DNA from: Escherichia coli
GTDB lineage: Bacteria > Pseudomonadota > Gammaproteobacteria > Enterobacterales > Enterobacteriaceae
Reading direction: 5' to 3' (one strand)
DNA: 64,000 bases
NCBI RefSeq assembly: GCF_003334355.1
Contig: NZ_QOWP01000017.1
Shown piece after piece: positions 2,245 through 46,326 of the stretch. A program made the position numbers and the translations under genes. Each line of letters starts with the position of its first letter. Position 1 is the first letter of the stretch. The notes below the pieces were generated by a model. That model was not told the DNA's origin and ran no database searches. It saw only the letters and a program-made list of their open reading frames with translations.

Positions 2245-3228
2245 TTATTTCACCGTACCTAAAATTTCGATTTTCGCTGCTCTGGCTTTGACTTTACGTG
2301 ACCAGATAGAGGTAAGAATTGGCACCAGAATCGAAGTCACAATGACCGCCGTCGCTACCAGCGAAGTTGCTGCCGGAGCCATCGGTTTAAACGCAGGCAC
2401 CATTTCTGCAATCAGCACAGGTGTCGCTACCGCGGCCCCTGCGGAACTGGAAGCGGCAATTCCGGCAGTGCCATCGCCACCGCCAATCAATTTATCGGCG
2501 ATAATCAACGGAATACCGGTCACGATAATTACTGCCACACCCAACAGGATCCCCAGCAAACCTGTCTGGGCAATTACAGTCAAATCAATGGTATTGCCCA
2601 GCGCGAAGGCAAAAAATGGAATCAGCGTCTGCACCGCTTTGCTGAAAAATTCTCGTAATTCAGGGTCAAGGTTCCCAAGGGCAAAGCCCACCAGGAACGG
2701 TAATACTGCGCCGACGAAAACATGCGGTTCAAACGAGGCAATCCCGGCAGTGCCCAGAATAATCATCGTCATGAGCGGCCCGGACTCCAATGACATCAAC
2801 ACAAATGCCCCAGCTTCTTCTTTTGTGCCGTACTGCTGCATGATGGAAGCGTAAAGTCCGCCGTTGGTCATATCCATCGCCGCCACCAGCGCCAGCGTTG
2901 AAAGTCCGGCAAAGAATCCAACTTCAACACCATGTTCCGGAATAATGCGCGAGGCAATTGCCGCAACCACCCACGCGACGGCAATTTTTGTTACCACCAG
3001 CGTACCGGATTTACGCAGTACCGTTCCCGTCGCGCTTAATTTTATTGACGCCCCCATGCAAAAAAACCACACCGCCAGAATGGGCACCGTACCGGTAATC
3101 ATCCCGTTGGTGAATGATCCAAAATATTTCCCCGCCCCCGGCGAGAAGGTGTGGCACAGTGCGCCAAGGAATAGCGGGACGAGCATCATCCCCCCCGGGA
3201 TTTTCTCAATCGAGCGTTTTATCTGCAT
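2245..3228 (-). CDS. kdgT: 2-keto-3-deoxygluconate permease
   Basis: 330-aa ORF, 327 aa from [13 protein letters not shown]...; highly hydrophobic multi-pass membrane protein. Confidence 0.9.
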
Positions 3229-3348
3229 TTCCATCACCTGTCGGCATATTTTTAAGGGCTGATGCGTAATTCCTCAATGGAGCATCAGTGTTGATGGAAA
3301 CGAAGATAGACATTCATTTAATCAATAAAAGTGATCAAAACCACATCA

Positions 3349-3369: not shown

Positions 3370-3402
3370 TATCGGATCATTGTTTTTATTTTGAAATTGA
3401 TC

Positions 3403-3440
3403 ACAAAAAAACCACCGCCGTTGGCGATGGTTCATTTTTT
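3403..3440 (-). terminator. Rho-independent terminator downstream of sodA
   Basis: Minus-strand hairpin accatcgcc/ggcggtggt followed by a U-run, and preceded by an A-run, directly after the sodA stop. Confidence 0.6.
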
Positions 3441-3487: not shown

Positions 3488-4108
3488 TTATTTTTTCGCC
3501 GCGAAACGTGCCGCTGCTTCATCCCAGTTCACCACGTTCCAGAACTCTTTGATGTAGTCCGGACGGCGGTTCTGGAATTTCAGGTAGTAAGCATGTTCCC
3601 ACACATCCAGGCCCAGAATCGGGAAGCCGGAAGCGCCAGAAATAGCTTCACCCATCAGCGGAGAATCCTGGTTAGCAGTAGAAACCACCGCCAGTTTATC
3701 GCCTTTCAGCACCAGCCATGCCCAGCCGGAACCAAAGCGGGAAGCTGCCGCTTTTTCAAATTCTGCTTTGAAGTTATCAACGGAGCCGAAGTCACGTTCG
3801 ATAGCCGCTTTCAGGTCACCCTGCAGGGTGGTGCCTTTTTTCAGACCTTTCCAGAACAGGCTGTGGTTAGCGTGACCGCCAGCGTTGTTGCGCAGTACGG
3901 TTTTCTTGTCTGCTGGCAGCTGGTCCAGTTTGGTGATCAGCTCTTCAACCGGCAGGTTGGCAAATTCTGGCAGGCTTTCCAGCGCCGCGTTGGCGTTGTT
4001 TACGTAGGTCTGATGGTGTTTGGTGTGGTGGATTTCCATGGTCTGCTCATCGAAGTGCGGTTCCAGGGCATCGTAAGCATACGGCAGGGATGGCAGGGTA
4101 TAGCTCAT
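3488..4108 (-). CDS. sodA: Manganese superoxide dismutase
   Basis: 206 aa from [20 protein letters not shown]...; classic Mn/Fe-SOD sequence with metal ligands in DVWEHAYY. Confidence 0.95.
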
Positions 4109-4160
4109 ATTCATCTCCAGTATTGTCGGGCGGCCGATTGTTAATGCCGCGTAAGCAGTT

Positions 4161-4202
4161 GGTTCATTATAGTTAATTAAATGATATTGAAAATGATTAT
4201 CA
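4161..4202. promoter_or_regulatory. sodA promoter region with Fur-box-like AT-rich dyad
   Basis: Minus-strand gataatcattttcaatatcatttaattaac resembles the GATAATGATAATCATTATC Fur consensus; sodA is an established Fur target. Confidence 0.4.
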
Positions 4203-4392
4203 ATGCCGTACTTTTCGTAAGGGTATGGTTTTGCAGGAAAATGCCCGAGATGTGAAGCAAATCACCCACTTAATGCCGTGATTGCCAGTAAATCGACAAC
4301 GGCGGCAACAGGCGAAAGGTTAATCGACAGCACGATTTTTACACTCATCTCGTCGGAGATGTGAAGCGACGAAAAATGATGAGGATAAGAAG

Positions 4393-5427
4393 ATGAGTAA
4401 CGCGATTACGATGGGGATATTTTGGCATTTGATCGGCGCGGCCAGTGCAGCCTGTTTTTACGCTCCGTTCAAAAAAGTAAAAAAATGGTCATGGGAAACC
4501 ATGTGGTCAGTCGGTGGGATTGTTTCGTGGATTATTCTGCCGTGGGCCATCAGCGCCCTGTTACTACCGGATTTCTGGGCGTATTACAGCTCGTTTAGTC
4601 TCTCTACGCTGCTGCCTGTTTTTCTGTTCGGCGCTATGTGGGGGATCGGTAATATCAACTATGGCCTGACCATGCGTTATCTCGGCATGTCGATGGGAAT
4701 TGGCATCGCCATTGGCATTACGTTGATTGTCGGTACGCTGATGACGCCAATTATCAACGGCAATTTCGATGTGCTGATTAACACCGAAGGCGGACGCATG
4801 ACGTTGCTCGGCGTTCTGGTGGCGCTGATTGGCGTAGGGATTGTAACTCGCGCCGGGCAGTTGAAAGAGCGCAAGATGGGCATTAAAGCCGAAGAGTTCA
4901 ATCTGAAAAAAGGGCTGGTGCTGGCGGTGATGTGCGGCATTTTCTCTGCCGGGATGTCCTTTGCGATGAACGCCGCAAAACCGATGCATGAAGCCGCTGC
5001 CGCACTTGGCGTCGATCCACTGTATGTCGCTCTGCCAAGCTATGTCATCATCATGGGCGGCGGCGCGATCATCAACCTCGGTTTCTGTTTTATTCGTCTG
5101 GCAAAAGTGAAGGATTTGTCGCTAAAAGCCGACTTCTCGCTGGCAAAACCGCTGATCACTCACAATGTGTTACTCTCAGCACTGGGCGGGTTGATGTGGT
5201 ACCTGCAATTCTTTTTCTATGCCTGGGGCCACGCCCGCATTCCGGCGCAATATGACTACATCAGTTGGATGCTGCATATGAGCTTCTATGTATTGTGCGG
5301 CGGTATCGTCGGGCTGGTGCTGAAAGAGTGGAACAATGCAGGACGCCGTCCGGTAACGGTGTTGAGCCTCGGTTGTGTGGTGATTATTGTCGCCGCTAAC
5401 ATCGTCGGCATCGGCATGGCGAATTAA
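4393..5427 (+). CDS. rhaT: L-rhamnose-proton symporter
   Basis: 344-aa ORF, 10-TM-type hydrophobic protein, conserved position beside rhaR. Confidence 0.95.
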
Positions 5428-7182: not shown

Positions 7183-10195
<3,013 letters not shown>

Positions 10196-10200
10196 ACACT

Positions 10201-10424
10201 GCCGGATGCGGCGCGAGCGCCTTATCCGGCCTACGGGTCGGCAACAGTTGTAGGCCTGATAAGACGCGACAGCGTCGCATCAGGCATTGATTGCCGGATG
10301 CGGCACAAGTGCCTTATCCGGCCTACAGGTCGGCAATAGTTGTAGGCCTGATAAGACGCGACAGCGTCGCATCAGGCATTGATTGCCGGATGCGGCGCGA
10401 GCGCCTTATCCGGCCTACGGGTCG
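10201..10424. repeat. BIME cluster: about 2.4 tandem copies of a 92-bp unit, each holding two inverted REP palindromes
   Basis: Unit gccggatgcggcgcgagcgccttatccggcctacgggtcggcaacagttgtaggcctgataagacgcgacagcgtcgcatcaggcattgatt begins at 10201, 10293 and 10385. Confidence 0.9.
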
Positions 10425-17884: not shown

Positions 17885-18718
17885 TTAATTGCTCAAACGC
17901 TGCGGATGGGTATAAACCGTTGCCCGACCCGGTTTACAAAAACCTACCAGTGTCAGATTACAGCGCTCAGCCACTTCTACAGCAAGCGTGGTCGCGGCAG
18001 ACACCGCAAACAAAATCTCTACGCCGCACATCGCCGACTTTTGCACCATTTCATAACTGGCACGACTGGAAACCAGTACCGCACCTTGCTGCCAGCTTTC
18101 CCCTTCTTGTGACCGGCGGCCTAACAGTTTGTCCAGCGCCACATGGCGACCCACGTCTTCATGCCCGCCGACCAGTTCGCCAGATGGCAACATCCAGGCA
18201 GCGGCGTGAGTACAACCAGTCAGTTGCCCCACTGGCTGAAAATCGTTGAGATGACGTAATGCATCATCCAGTTTGTTGAGATCAAACGTCTGGGTGAACG
18301 GTAGCGGCTGCACCGGTTTTCCGATGTCATTAAGTTGCTCCACGCCGCATACGCCACAGCCCGTACGTCCCGCCAGCGCCCGGCGGCGCTCCTTCAACCC
18401 CATAAAGCGGCGGCTGGAAAGCTCAATTTGTACTTCAAGACCATTACAGGAAGGAACGACATCCATGCCGAAGATATCGCGCGGACTTTCGATAATCCCC
18501 TCGGAAAGCGAAAAACCGAGCGCAAAGTACTCAAGGTCTTTGGGCGACGCCATCATCACCACATGCGAAATGCCGTTGTAGACCAGCGCAACGGGAACTT
18601 CTTCCGCGACCTCATCTAACCGTGGGTGTTGTAAATCATCACGCCGCCATAACTCAATTTGACGAACACCTGTGATATTTGTCACATTTTCGATTTCTTT
18701 TCGCTGTGTTTTTTTCAC
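17885..18718 (-). CDS. fdhD: Formate dehydrogenase sulfurtransferase/accessory protein FdhD
   Basis: 277-aa ORF, divergent from fdoG, matches FdhD. Confidence 0.9.
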
Positions 18719-44502: not shown

Positions 44503-46326
44503 TTAATCGTCTTTCGGTGCGCGGTTAGCGCGACGACGATCGTTTTCCGTCAGGTGACGTTTACGAATACGGATAGAGGTTGGAGTCACTTCTACCAGTT
44601 CGTCATCATCGATGAACTCCAGAGCTTGTTCCAGAGTCATGCGGATAGGCGGAACCAGAACAACGGCTTCGTCAGTACCGGAAGCACGCATGTTGGTCAG
44701 TTTCTTACCGGTCAGGCAGTTTACCGTCAGGTCGTTAGAGCGGCTATGAATACCGATAATCTGACCTTCGTAAACTTCTGCACCGTGACCGAGGAACAGC
44801 TTACCGCGATCCTGCAGACCGAACAGCGCGAACGCGACCGCTTTACCCTGACCGTTAGAGATCAGTACGCCGTTCTGACGCTGGCCCACTTCACCCGGAC
44901 GTACGTCGTCGTAGTGGCTGAAGGTGGAGTACAGCAGACCAGTACCGGAAGTCATGGTCATGAACTCAGAACGGAAGCCAATCAGACCACGGCTTGGGAT
45001 CACGTAGTCGAGACGTACGCGGCCTTTACCGTCTGGATTCATGTTTTTCAGGTCGCCTTTACGTTCGCCCAGCGCCTGCATCACAGAACCCTGATGCTGT
45101 TCTTCAACGTCCAGCGTCACGTTTTCATACGGCTCTTGTTTACGACCGTCGATTTCACGGAAGATTACTTTCGGACGGGATACCGCCAGTTCGAAACCTT
45201 CACGACGCATGTTTTCGATCAGAACAGACAGGTGCAGTTCGCCACGACCAGAAACGCGGAACGCATCGGCGTCTTCGGTTTCTTCTACGCGCAGCGCAAC
45301 GTTGTGTACCAGTTCTTTGTTCAGACGATCCAGGATCTGACGAGACGTTACGAACTTACCTTCTTTACCGCAGAACGGCGAGGTGTTAACGCAGAAGAAC
45401 ATAGAAACGGTCGGCTCATCAACGGAGAGTGCCGGCAGCGCTTCAACGTTTTGCGTGTCGCAAACGGTGTCAGAAATGTTCAGTTCGCCCAGGCCCGTGA
45501 TCGCCACGATATCGCCAGCTTCCGCCAGGTCGGTTTCGATACGTTCCAGACCGAGGTGGCCCAGCACTTTACCGACTTTCGCGTTGCGGGTTTTGCCTTC
45601 GCTATCGATGATAGTGACCTGCTGGTTCGGCTTCACTTTACCGCGCTTGATGCGGCCAATGCCGATAACGCCAACATAGCTGTTGTAATCGAGCTGAGAA
45701 ATCTGCATCTGGAACGGACCGTCAAGGTCAACGTCCGGCGCAGGAACGTGGTCAACAATCGCCTGGTACAGCGGGGTCATGTCTTCCGCCATATCTTCGT
45801 GGTCCAGACCCGCGATACCGTTCAGCGCAGAAGCGTAAACGATCGGGAAGTCCAGCTGCTCGTCGGTCGCGTCGAGGTTAACGAACAGATCGAATACCTG
45901 ATCCACAACCCAATCAGGACGCGCGCCAGGGCGGTCAACTTTGTTGATAACAACAATCGGCTTCAGGCCGTAAGCAAACGCTTTTTTGGTTACGAAGCGC
46001 GTTTGCGGCATCGGGCCGTCAAATGCGTCAACCACCAGCAGCACTGAGTCTACCATGGACATTACACGTTCAACTTCACCACCGAAGTCGGCGTGCCCCG
46101 GGGTATCAACGATGTTGATACGGTAATCATTCCATTTGATAGCGGTGTTTTTCGCGAGGATGGTAATCCCACGCTCTTTCTCCAAATCGTTGGAGTCCAT
46201 CACGCGCTCTTGGGTTTCGGCACGAGAGTCGAACGTACCGGATTGTTGGAGCAGCTTGTCTACCAGGGTGGTTTTACCATGGTCTACGTGCGCGATGATG
46301 GCGATATTACGCAATTTTTCGATCAC
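44503..46326 (-). CDS. typA: Ribosome-associated translational GTPase TypA/BipA
   Basis: 607 aa; G-motifs [18 protein letters not shown]. Confidence 0.95.

Follow-up and report, generated by a model that had tools for sequence, protein, structure and literature searches.

The sodA-rhaT intergenic region of Escherichia coli carries a 12-nucleotide word, GAGATGTGAAGC, twice on the same strand, and a 9-nucleotide word, TTAATGCCG, also recurs there. The question raised by this locus is whether these words are paired control elements of the two divergent genes, the trace of a small local duplication, or chance matches between unrelated parts of the region. A sequence-only reading had proposed the first two possibilities, pointing to the dependence of rhaT on RhaS and CRP. 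Throughout, the window is the whole stretch of 64,000 nucleotides (64 kb) that was analysed.

Layout of the sodA-rhaT spacer and statistics of the repeats

The divergent spacer between sodA and rhaT is 284 bp long and has the same length in the K-12 reference. A 401-bp spacer query found a match in 5425 of 5426 complete E. coli genomes and the annotation around the match was always sodA on one side and rhaT on the other. Because the annotation in these 5425 genomes and the K-12 spacer agree, the locus is the divergent sodA-rhaT control region that has been much studied in E. coli. That it holds the divergent promoters of both genes, as the sequence-only reading had it, is borne out by the ORF list, the RefSeq annotation and the K-12 coordinates. 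The genes, core promoters and repeated words are the following:

3488..4108, minus strand: sodA (Mn superoxide dismutase) coding sequence, from the ORF list, the RefSeq annotation and the K-12 coordinates
4141..4149, plus strand: first copy of TTAATGCCG, in the transcribed sodA leader, about +13 to +21 on the minus strand
4166..4193, minus strand: sodA core promoter, -35 TTTTCA at 4193-4188 and -10 TATAAT at 4171-4166
4200..4208, plus strand: TCAATGCCG, just upstream of the sodA -35, at about -39 to -47
4247..4258, plus strand: copy 1 of the 12-mer GAGATGTGAAGC, whose TGTGA at 4251-4255 is the left half of a CRP site
4317..4345, plus strand: PrhaT core promoter, -35 AGGTTA at 4317-4322, a 17-nt spacer and -10 TACACT at 4340-4345
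4356..4367, plus strand: copy 2 of the 12-mer GAGATGTGAAGC, comprising a hairpin loop and the first base of the 3' arm, with an A/C polymorphism at 4365
4381-4385 and 4393-4395, plus strand: rhaT Shine-Dalgarno GAGGA and ATG, from the ORF list, with GAGG invariant in the orthologue alignments
4393-5427, plus strand: rhaT coding sequence, from the ORF list, with rhaR and rhaS next

The sodA core promoter gave 10 of 12 matches in the consensus scan and lies in a block that is invariant across genera. The sodA start presumably lies at about position 4161, as calculated from the EcoCyc start coordinate and the CDS coordinates with an assumed genome-version offset. The EcoCyc coordinate is the one quoted in PMC2787020. 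The PrhaT core promoter is collinear with that of PrhaBAD (AGGTCG-17-TAGACT) and its -10 block is 0.96 conserved in 52 non-Escherichia spacers. In PMC9429829, which describes primers designed from the map of Via et al. 1996, primer MM14 closes the "-10 region" at TACACT and the primer junction labelled "downstream of TSS" falls between 4355 and 4356. These primer junctions, together with the published CRP positions -90 and -95, bound the rhaT transcription start to 4350-4355, and it is within this interval that we infer the exact start site. A scan of the sodA-rhaT spacer for terminator-like sites gave none.

The segment 4100-4215, which holds the sodA leader and core promoter, is almost 100% identical in 52 species from several genera and exceeds the rest of the spacer in conservation. 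A dense overlap of regulator sites is known at sodA and fits this high conservation.

The 12-mer occurs exactly twice in the window, with a start-to-start distance of 109 bp; both copies had been reported correctly except that the coordinate given for the first, 4246, was one base low. The 9-mer copies, previously located at about 4140 and 4271, start at 4141 and at 4270 (4270-4278), 129 bp apart, and TCAATGCCG is a further copy with one mismatch. REP-type repeats near 10200-10400 aside, no 12-mer in the window other than GAGATGTGAAGC recurs in direct orientation within 150 bp. In windows simulated with an order-1 Markov model, 0.56 such repeats are expected per 64 kb and 50% of the windows contain at least one. 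When only the 284-bp spacer is considered from the outset, the expectation for a 12-mer repeat falls to 0.004, which counts against a chance reading, and a 9-mer repeat is expected 0.22 times in the spacer by the same kind of simulation. Repeat statistics alone are thus not convincing evidence that the words are more than chance.

The surroundings of the copies were also compared. The flanks of the two 12-mer copies are identical at 9 of 30 positions on either side, the range of identities is 25-37%, and a repeat search extends neither copy beyond the core word. Identity at this level is that of random sequence, so the proposal of a small local duplication fails. The three 9-mer copies have nothing in common beyond the word itself.

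Two other sets of repeats were seen in the window. Between 10200 and 10415 the 12-mers TGCCGGATGCGG, GCCTTATCCGGC and AGTTGTAGGCCT recur at a spacing of 92 bp, as is typical of REP/BIME elements, and the 12-mer CAGTACCGGAAG occurs at 44673 and 44940, 267 bp apart.

CRP and RhaS elements of PrhaT

The transporter gene rhaT is RhaS-dependent and CRP-dependent, with a single element for each of the two regulators described at PrhaT. In a genomic SELEX study, rhaT-sodA appears in the list of divergent gene pairs for which a single CRP site was detected. The elements placed on the spacer are the following:

4251..4266, no strand assigned: CRP-binding site of PrhaT, shared with divergent sodA, TGTGAAGCAAATCACC, centre 4258.5
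4270..4286, plus strand: putative distal RhaS half-site, TTAATGCCGTGATTGCC, collinear with rhaI1 of PrhaBAD, its first 9 nt being TTAATGCCG
4304..4320, plus strand: putative proximal RhaS half-site, GGCAACAGGCGAAAGGT, collinear with rhaI2 of PrhaBAD

Copy 1 of the 12-mer consists of the 4-nt flank GAGA, the TGTGA half and three spacer bases of this CRP site. The site matches 9 of the 10 core positions of TGTGA-N6-TCACA (one mismatch). Its conservation was followed in 80 orthologous loci (L001-L080), which were recovered with RhaT using one genome per species. TGTGA lies at -142 to -160 relative to the rhaT start codon in nearly all of the 80 loci, and in 52 distinct non-Escherichia spacers it is conserved at 1.0, compared with 0.1-0.7 for the other bases of the 12-mer. 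The TCAC half is for the most part conserved in the same 52 species, with an invariant central CA (4263-4264) flanked by a T at 0.7 and a C at 0.6. Measured from the bounded start, the CRP centre is 91.5-96.5 bp upstream, a position compatible with activation, and the published rhaT CRP site contains positions -90 and -95.

The same arrangement is found at PrhaBAD, which lies in the same window and where an upstream CRP site (7346-7361, centred at -92.5) acts as a co-activator site with RhaS. The two promoters have the TGTGA-N6-TCAC core in common and the same order of elements (CRP site, distal RhaS half-site, proximal RhaS half-site, -35, -10), and their alignment is collinear over the CRP site, TTGCCA, AAGGT at the -35 and TTTTTA-ACT at the -10. 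Distances are nearly equal too, the -10 ending 86.5 bp from the CRP centre in PrhaT and 85.5 bp from it in PrhaBAD. PrhaT differs in having one additional bp between the RhaS half-sites and in facing the divergent gene sodA. The PrhaBAD-like CRP site at PrhaT includes only copy 1 of the 12-mer.

Two other CRP-like cores were noted in the window: TTTGAAATTGATCACA at 3390-3405, in the interval that separates sodA from the upstream permease gene (2245-3237, minus strand), and TGTGATATTTGTCACA, a perfect core, at 18671-18686.

RhaS half-sites are 17-18 bp long, inverted and 14-16 bp apart, and they are located between the CRP site and the -35, ending at the -35 or overlapping it. The sequence of the 50-bp RhaS site of PrhaBAD was taken from primer PF25 (PMC9429829) and its description as inverted half-sites from PMC11983282, and two RhaS half-sites, named rhaI5 and rhaI6, have been reported at PrhaT. 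The sites of both promoters (rhaI1/rhaI2 and rhaI5/rhaI6) have the inverted motif TTGCC...GGCAA in common, and at PrhaT AAGGT overlaps the -35. In the 52 species, TTGCCAG at 4282-4288 is nearly invariant, GGCAAC in the proximal half-site is conserved at 0.95 and AAGG at 1.0, and TTGCCAG, GGCAAC and AAGG form an inverted repeat. The TTAATGCCG part of the distal half-site (4270-4278) is only 0.52 conserved. Collinearity with PrhaBAD suggests the half-site borders listed above, and the published PrhaT RhaS site is about 5 bp further from the -35 than collinearity places it. With either mapping the RhaS site falls between the CRP site and the -35, includes TTAATGCCG at 4270-4278 and excludes both copies of the 12-mer.

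At position 7405 the proximal PrhaBAD half-site reads CAGTAGCGAG in this strain versus GTAACGAG in the K-12-derived primer PF25, which suggests that rhaI2 contains an A/G polymorphism. Within the RhaS/-35 region of PrhaT there is also a 10/11 direct repeat, GTAAATCGACA and GTTAATCGACA (4288-4298 and 4319-4329, 31 bp apart). These were considered as RhaS half-sites and rejected, since RhaS binds inverted repeats and other genera do not conserve the upstream copy; the repeat is probably due to chance.

The remaining copies of the 9-mer are highly conserved and belong to sodA. The copy at 4141-4149 has a mean identity of 0.92 in the 52 non-Escherichia orthologues, and TCAATGCCG at 4200-4208 has an identity of 0.99 across the 52 species and forms part of an invariant block. 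The minus strand of 4190-4209 (ACGGCATTGATAATCATTTT) resembles the consensus of a class II SoxS/MarA/Rob box, and TCAATGCCG is probably part of this box.

The second copy of the 12-mer and the origin of the match

Because the rhaT start is bounded to 4350-4355, copy 2 belongs to the transcribed rhaT leader and begins 1-6 nt past the start. Outside Escherichia its mean identity is 0.35, with ATGTGAAG conserved at 0.0-0.4, and among the 52 non-Escherichia orthologues the downstream TGTGA was found in none, Escherichia being the only genus that carries it. Read as a CRP site (TGTGAAGCGACGAAAA, 4360-4375), copy 2 matches 7 of 10 core positions, a score equalled by 330 other strand-sites in the window; such a site would be centred at about +13 to +18.

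The perfect identity of the two copies depends on position 4365. With C at this position the downstream word becomes GAGATGTGACGC, an 11/12 match, and this is the form found in K-12 (genome and published primers), ST2747, CRE389, JJ1886 and the outgroup Escherichia sp. MOD1-EC7003. JJ1886 additionally carries G4247A in copy 1. The A allele is present in 1515 of 5426 complete E. coli genomes (~28%), IAI1 included, as counted with a 34-mer that could match only when the A allele is present. Since the outgroup Escherichia and the strains compared carry C at 4365, the ancestral match is a 9-mer (11/12), which is within chance.

The reading that we favour, with a probability of roughly 0.85, is that the two copies of GAGATGTGAAGC belong to unrelated parts of the rhaT control region and are alike by coincidence. 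Copy 1 would be the sodA-proximal flank and the TGTGA half of the single cAMP-CRP site, about 92-94 bp before the rhaT start, from which CRP would co-activate PrhaT together with RhaS bound at two inverted half-sites before the -35, as in the PrhaBAD layout. Copy 2, as the least constrained stretch of the leader, would be the loop of a short hairpin at the leader's 5' end, and we infer that copy 2 has no function. The C-to-A loop polymorphism, carried by this strain, would then have extended a 9-mer match to 12/12. The copies of TTAATGCCG would likewise be unrelated, one being sodA leader, another (imperfect) lying beside the sodA -35 and the third forming the outer part of the distal RhaS half-site. 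Of the elements behind the words, the CRP and RhaS sites of PrhaT and the promoter and leader of sodA were known before, and the variable loop is incidental.

The proposal that the repeats are activator half-sites therefore holds in part, as copy 1 lies on a CRP half and TTAATGCCG at 4270-4278 lies in the putative distal RhaS half-site. It does not hold for paired half-sites, since copy 2 is leader sequence with mismatches at 3 of 10 CRP core positions and is not conserved, and the other 9-mers lie in the sodA leader and promoter. Comparison with the published sites gives the same division: copy 1 overlaps the known PrhaT CRP site and copy 2 falls outside the CRP and RhaS sites.

Three other explanations were weighed against chance matching. 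Copy 2 might be a second, low-affinity CRP half-site just past the rhaT start that modulates PrhaT by damping or as a roadblock. Its TGTGA is perfect and is preceded by the same four nucleotides as in the real CRP site, multiple CRP sites were reportedly described at rhaSR by Wickstrum et al. in 2005, and since every Escherichia sequence compared retains the downstream TGTGA, a lineage-specific weak half-site is conceivable on sequence. However, its second half reads GAAAA instead of TCACA, sites with this many mismatches are abundant in the 64 kb, all 52 non-Escherichia orthologues lack it and SELEX gives a single CRP site in the spacer, which together make this explanation very improbable. 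To sequence transfer, whether by a small local duplication or by a template switch that copied copy 1 and converted C4365 to A, we assign a similarly slight chance. The derived SNP does bring copy 2 into full identity with copy 1, and C is the base in the outgroup and in most strains, but a lone SNP says little when any of three substitutions could have occurred at the site; moreover, the random flanks speak against duplication, the ancestral match is within chance, and the copies are 109 bp apart and direct, not quasi-palindromic.

The idea that the repeats are half-sites for RhaS, an AraC-family activator, draws on the RhaS dependence of rhaT and on the collinear placement of TTAATGCCG at 4270-4278 within the distal half-site, and we consider it scarcely credible. 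Neither 12-mer copy lies between the CRP site and the -35; in contrast to the inverted half-sites the repeats are direct, 109 or 129 bp apart and mostly elsewhere, the 12-mers being at about -105 to -93 and +1 to +17, and only 4270-4278 overlaps the distal half-site. In the 9-mers at 4141 and 4200, which belong to the leader and promoter of sodA, the conserved inner motif TTGCC is missing, and the 9-mer portion of the half-site is itself poorly conserved.

This result removes a false lead, as the 12-mer pair is neither a regulatory pair nor a duplication. It also illustrates that one SNP can be enough to make a conspicuous 12-mer out of a chance 9-mer, and that repeats in well-studied promoters should be checked against orthologues and other strains before function is inferred from them.

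The leader hairpin of rhaT

The region that contains copy 2 can be folded into a short hairpin:

4351..4371, plus strand: rhaT leader hairpin, 5' arm CGTCG at 4351-4355, 11-nt loop at 4356-4366 and 3' arm CGACG at 4367-4371

The E. coli hairpin has a predicted folding energy (RNAfold) of -4.3 to -7.7 kcal/mol and is weak, at -4.3 kcal/mol, when the transcript begins at G4352. A hairpin is predicted at the same place, right after the -10/start region, in nearly all of 68 distinct orthologous leaders from across the Enterobacteriaceae, and folding of the orthologous leaders gave a mean z of -2.4, with 75% below -1. The stems vary in sequence (GTCGG/CCGAC, GACGG/CCGTC, GCCGG/CCGGC, TCGGA/TCCGA, GTTGG/CCAAC and GGGG/CCCC). 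In the orthologous loci the hairpins (at about 1455-1485) are followed by an A-rich tract and then the GAGGA ribosome-binding site, and many of the loops contain GGA.

RNAalifold predicted no structure on the plain MAFFT alignment of the leaders, in which the loops are of unequal length and the 3' arms out of register. Pair counting, per-sequence folding and a covariance-model alignment were therefore used. Pair counting on the plain alignment (A3) gave 79% paired, versus 25-54% for slid partners, with 16 G-U cells, and three of the five stem pairs are changed on both sides in a compensatory manner. In the covariance-model alignment (A4, 59 leaders), which is fitted to the structure of the model, 83% were paired and the covariation was 0.184 versus 0.145 in shuffled alignments, a value reached by 0 of 500 shuffles. 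Slid-partner controls across both alignments were 5-57% paired, and the 16-20 G-U cells fit only the plus-strand RNA. An Rfam scan of the leader returned a sole match, a viral hairpin at 19.8 bits with a gathering score of 70, which is due to chance. Taken from sequence and folding, the rhaT leader hairpin appears to be structurally conserved with compensatory changes.

This conservation raises the possibility, which we regard as doubtful though worth stating, that the hairpin is an undescribed post-transcriptional element, either a 5' stem-loop that would stabilise the rhaT mRNA or a protein-binding hairpin; the 12-mer repeat would still be coincidental. The ompA leader hairpin is a 5'-terminal stem-loop that protects its mRNA against 5'-end-dependent decay, and we presume a resemblance between it and the rhaT hairpin. 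Like such 5'-terminal stem-loops of enterobacterial mRNAs, the rhaT leader would have a short hairpin at or near the 5' end, an A-rich single-stranded tract and a ribosome-binding site; the likeness is drawn from sequence and folding with a 5' end that is bounded only, and it is the structure and not the sequence of the rhaT hairpin that is kept. The E. coli rhaT hairpin differs from the ompA type in being weak. The GGA carried by many orthologous loops, with a second GGA in the Shine-Dalgarno sequence, resembles a CsrA-type arrangement, in leaders that are phylogenetically non-independent. If the hairpin is functional, the loop polymorphism at 4365 might tune it, and a conserved leader hairpin could concern those who use PrhaT as an expression tool.

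Two further features of the rhaT leaders were observed. In E. coli, ACTCATCT (4343-4350, over the rhaT -10/discriminator) is perfectly complementary to AGATGAGT (4391-4398, across the start codon), a pairing that would matter only for transcripts starting upstream of PrhaT, and CTCATC also complements GATGAG in the Shine-Dalgarno region (4378-4383). In Buttiauxella and its relatives (L071, L072, L075-L078 and L080, at about 1440-1480 of these loci) a GGGG...CCCC hairpin with outer CGCA/TGCG pairs is followed by 5-6 T, in contrast to the A-run that follows the leader hairpin in E. coli, and from its sequence this hairpin with its T run looks like an intrinsic terminator or attenuator.
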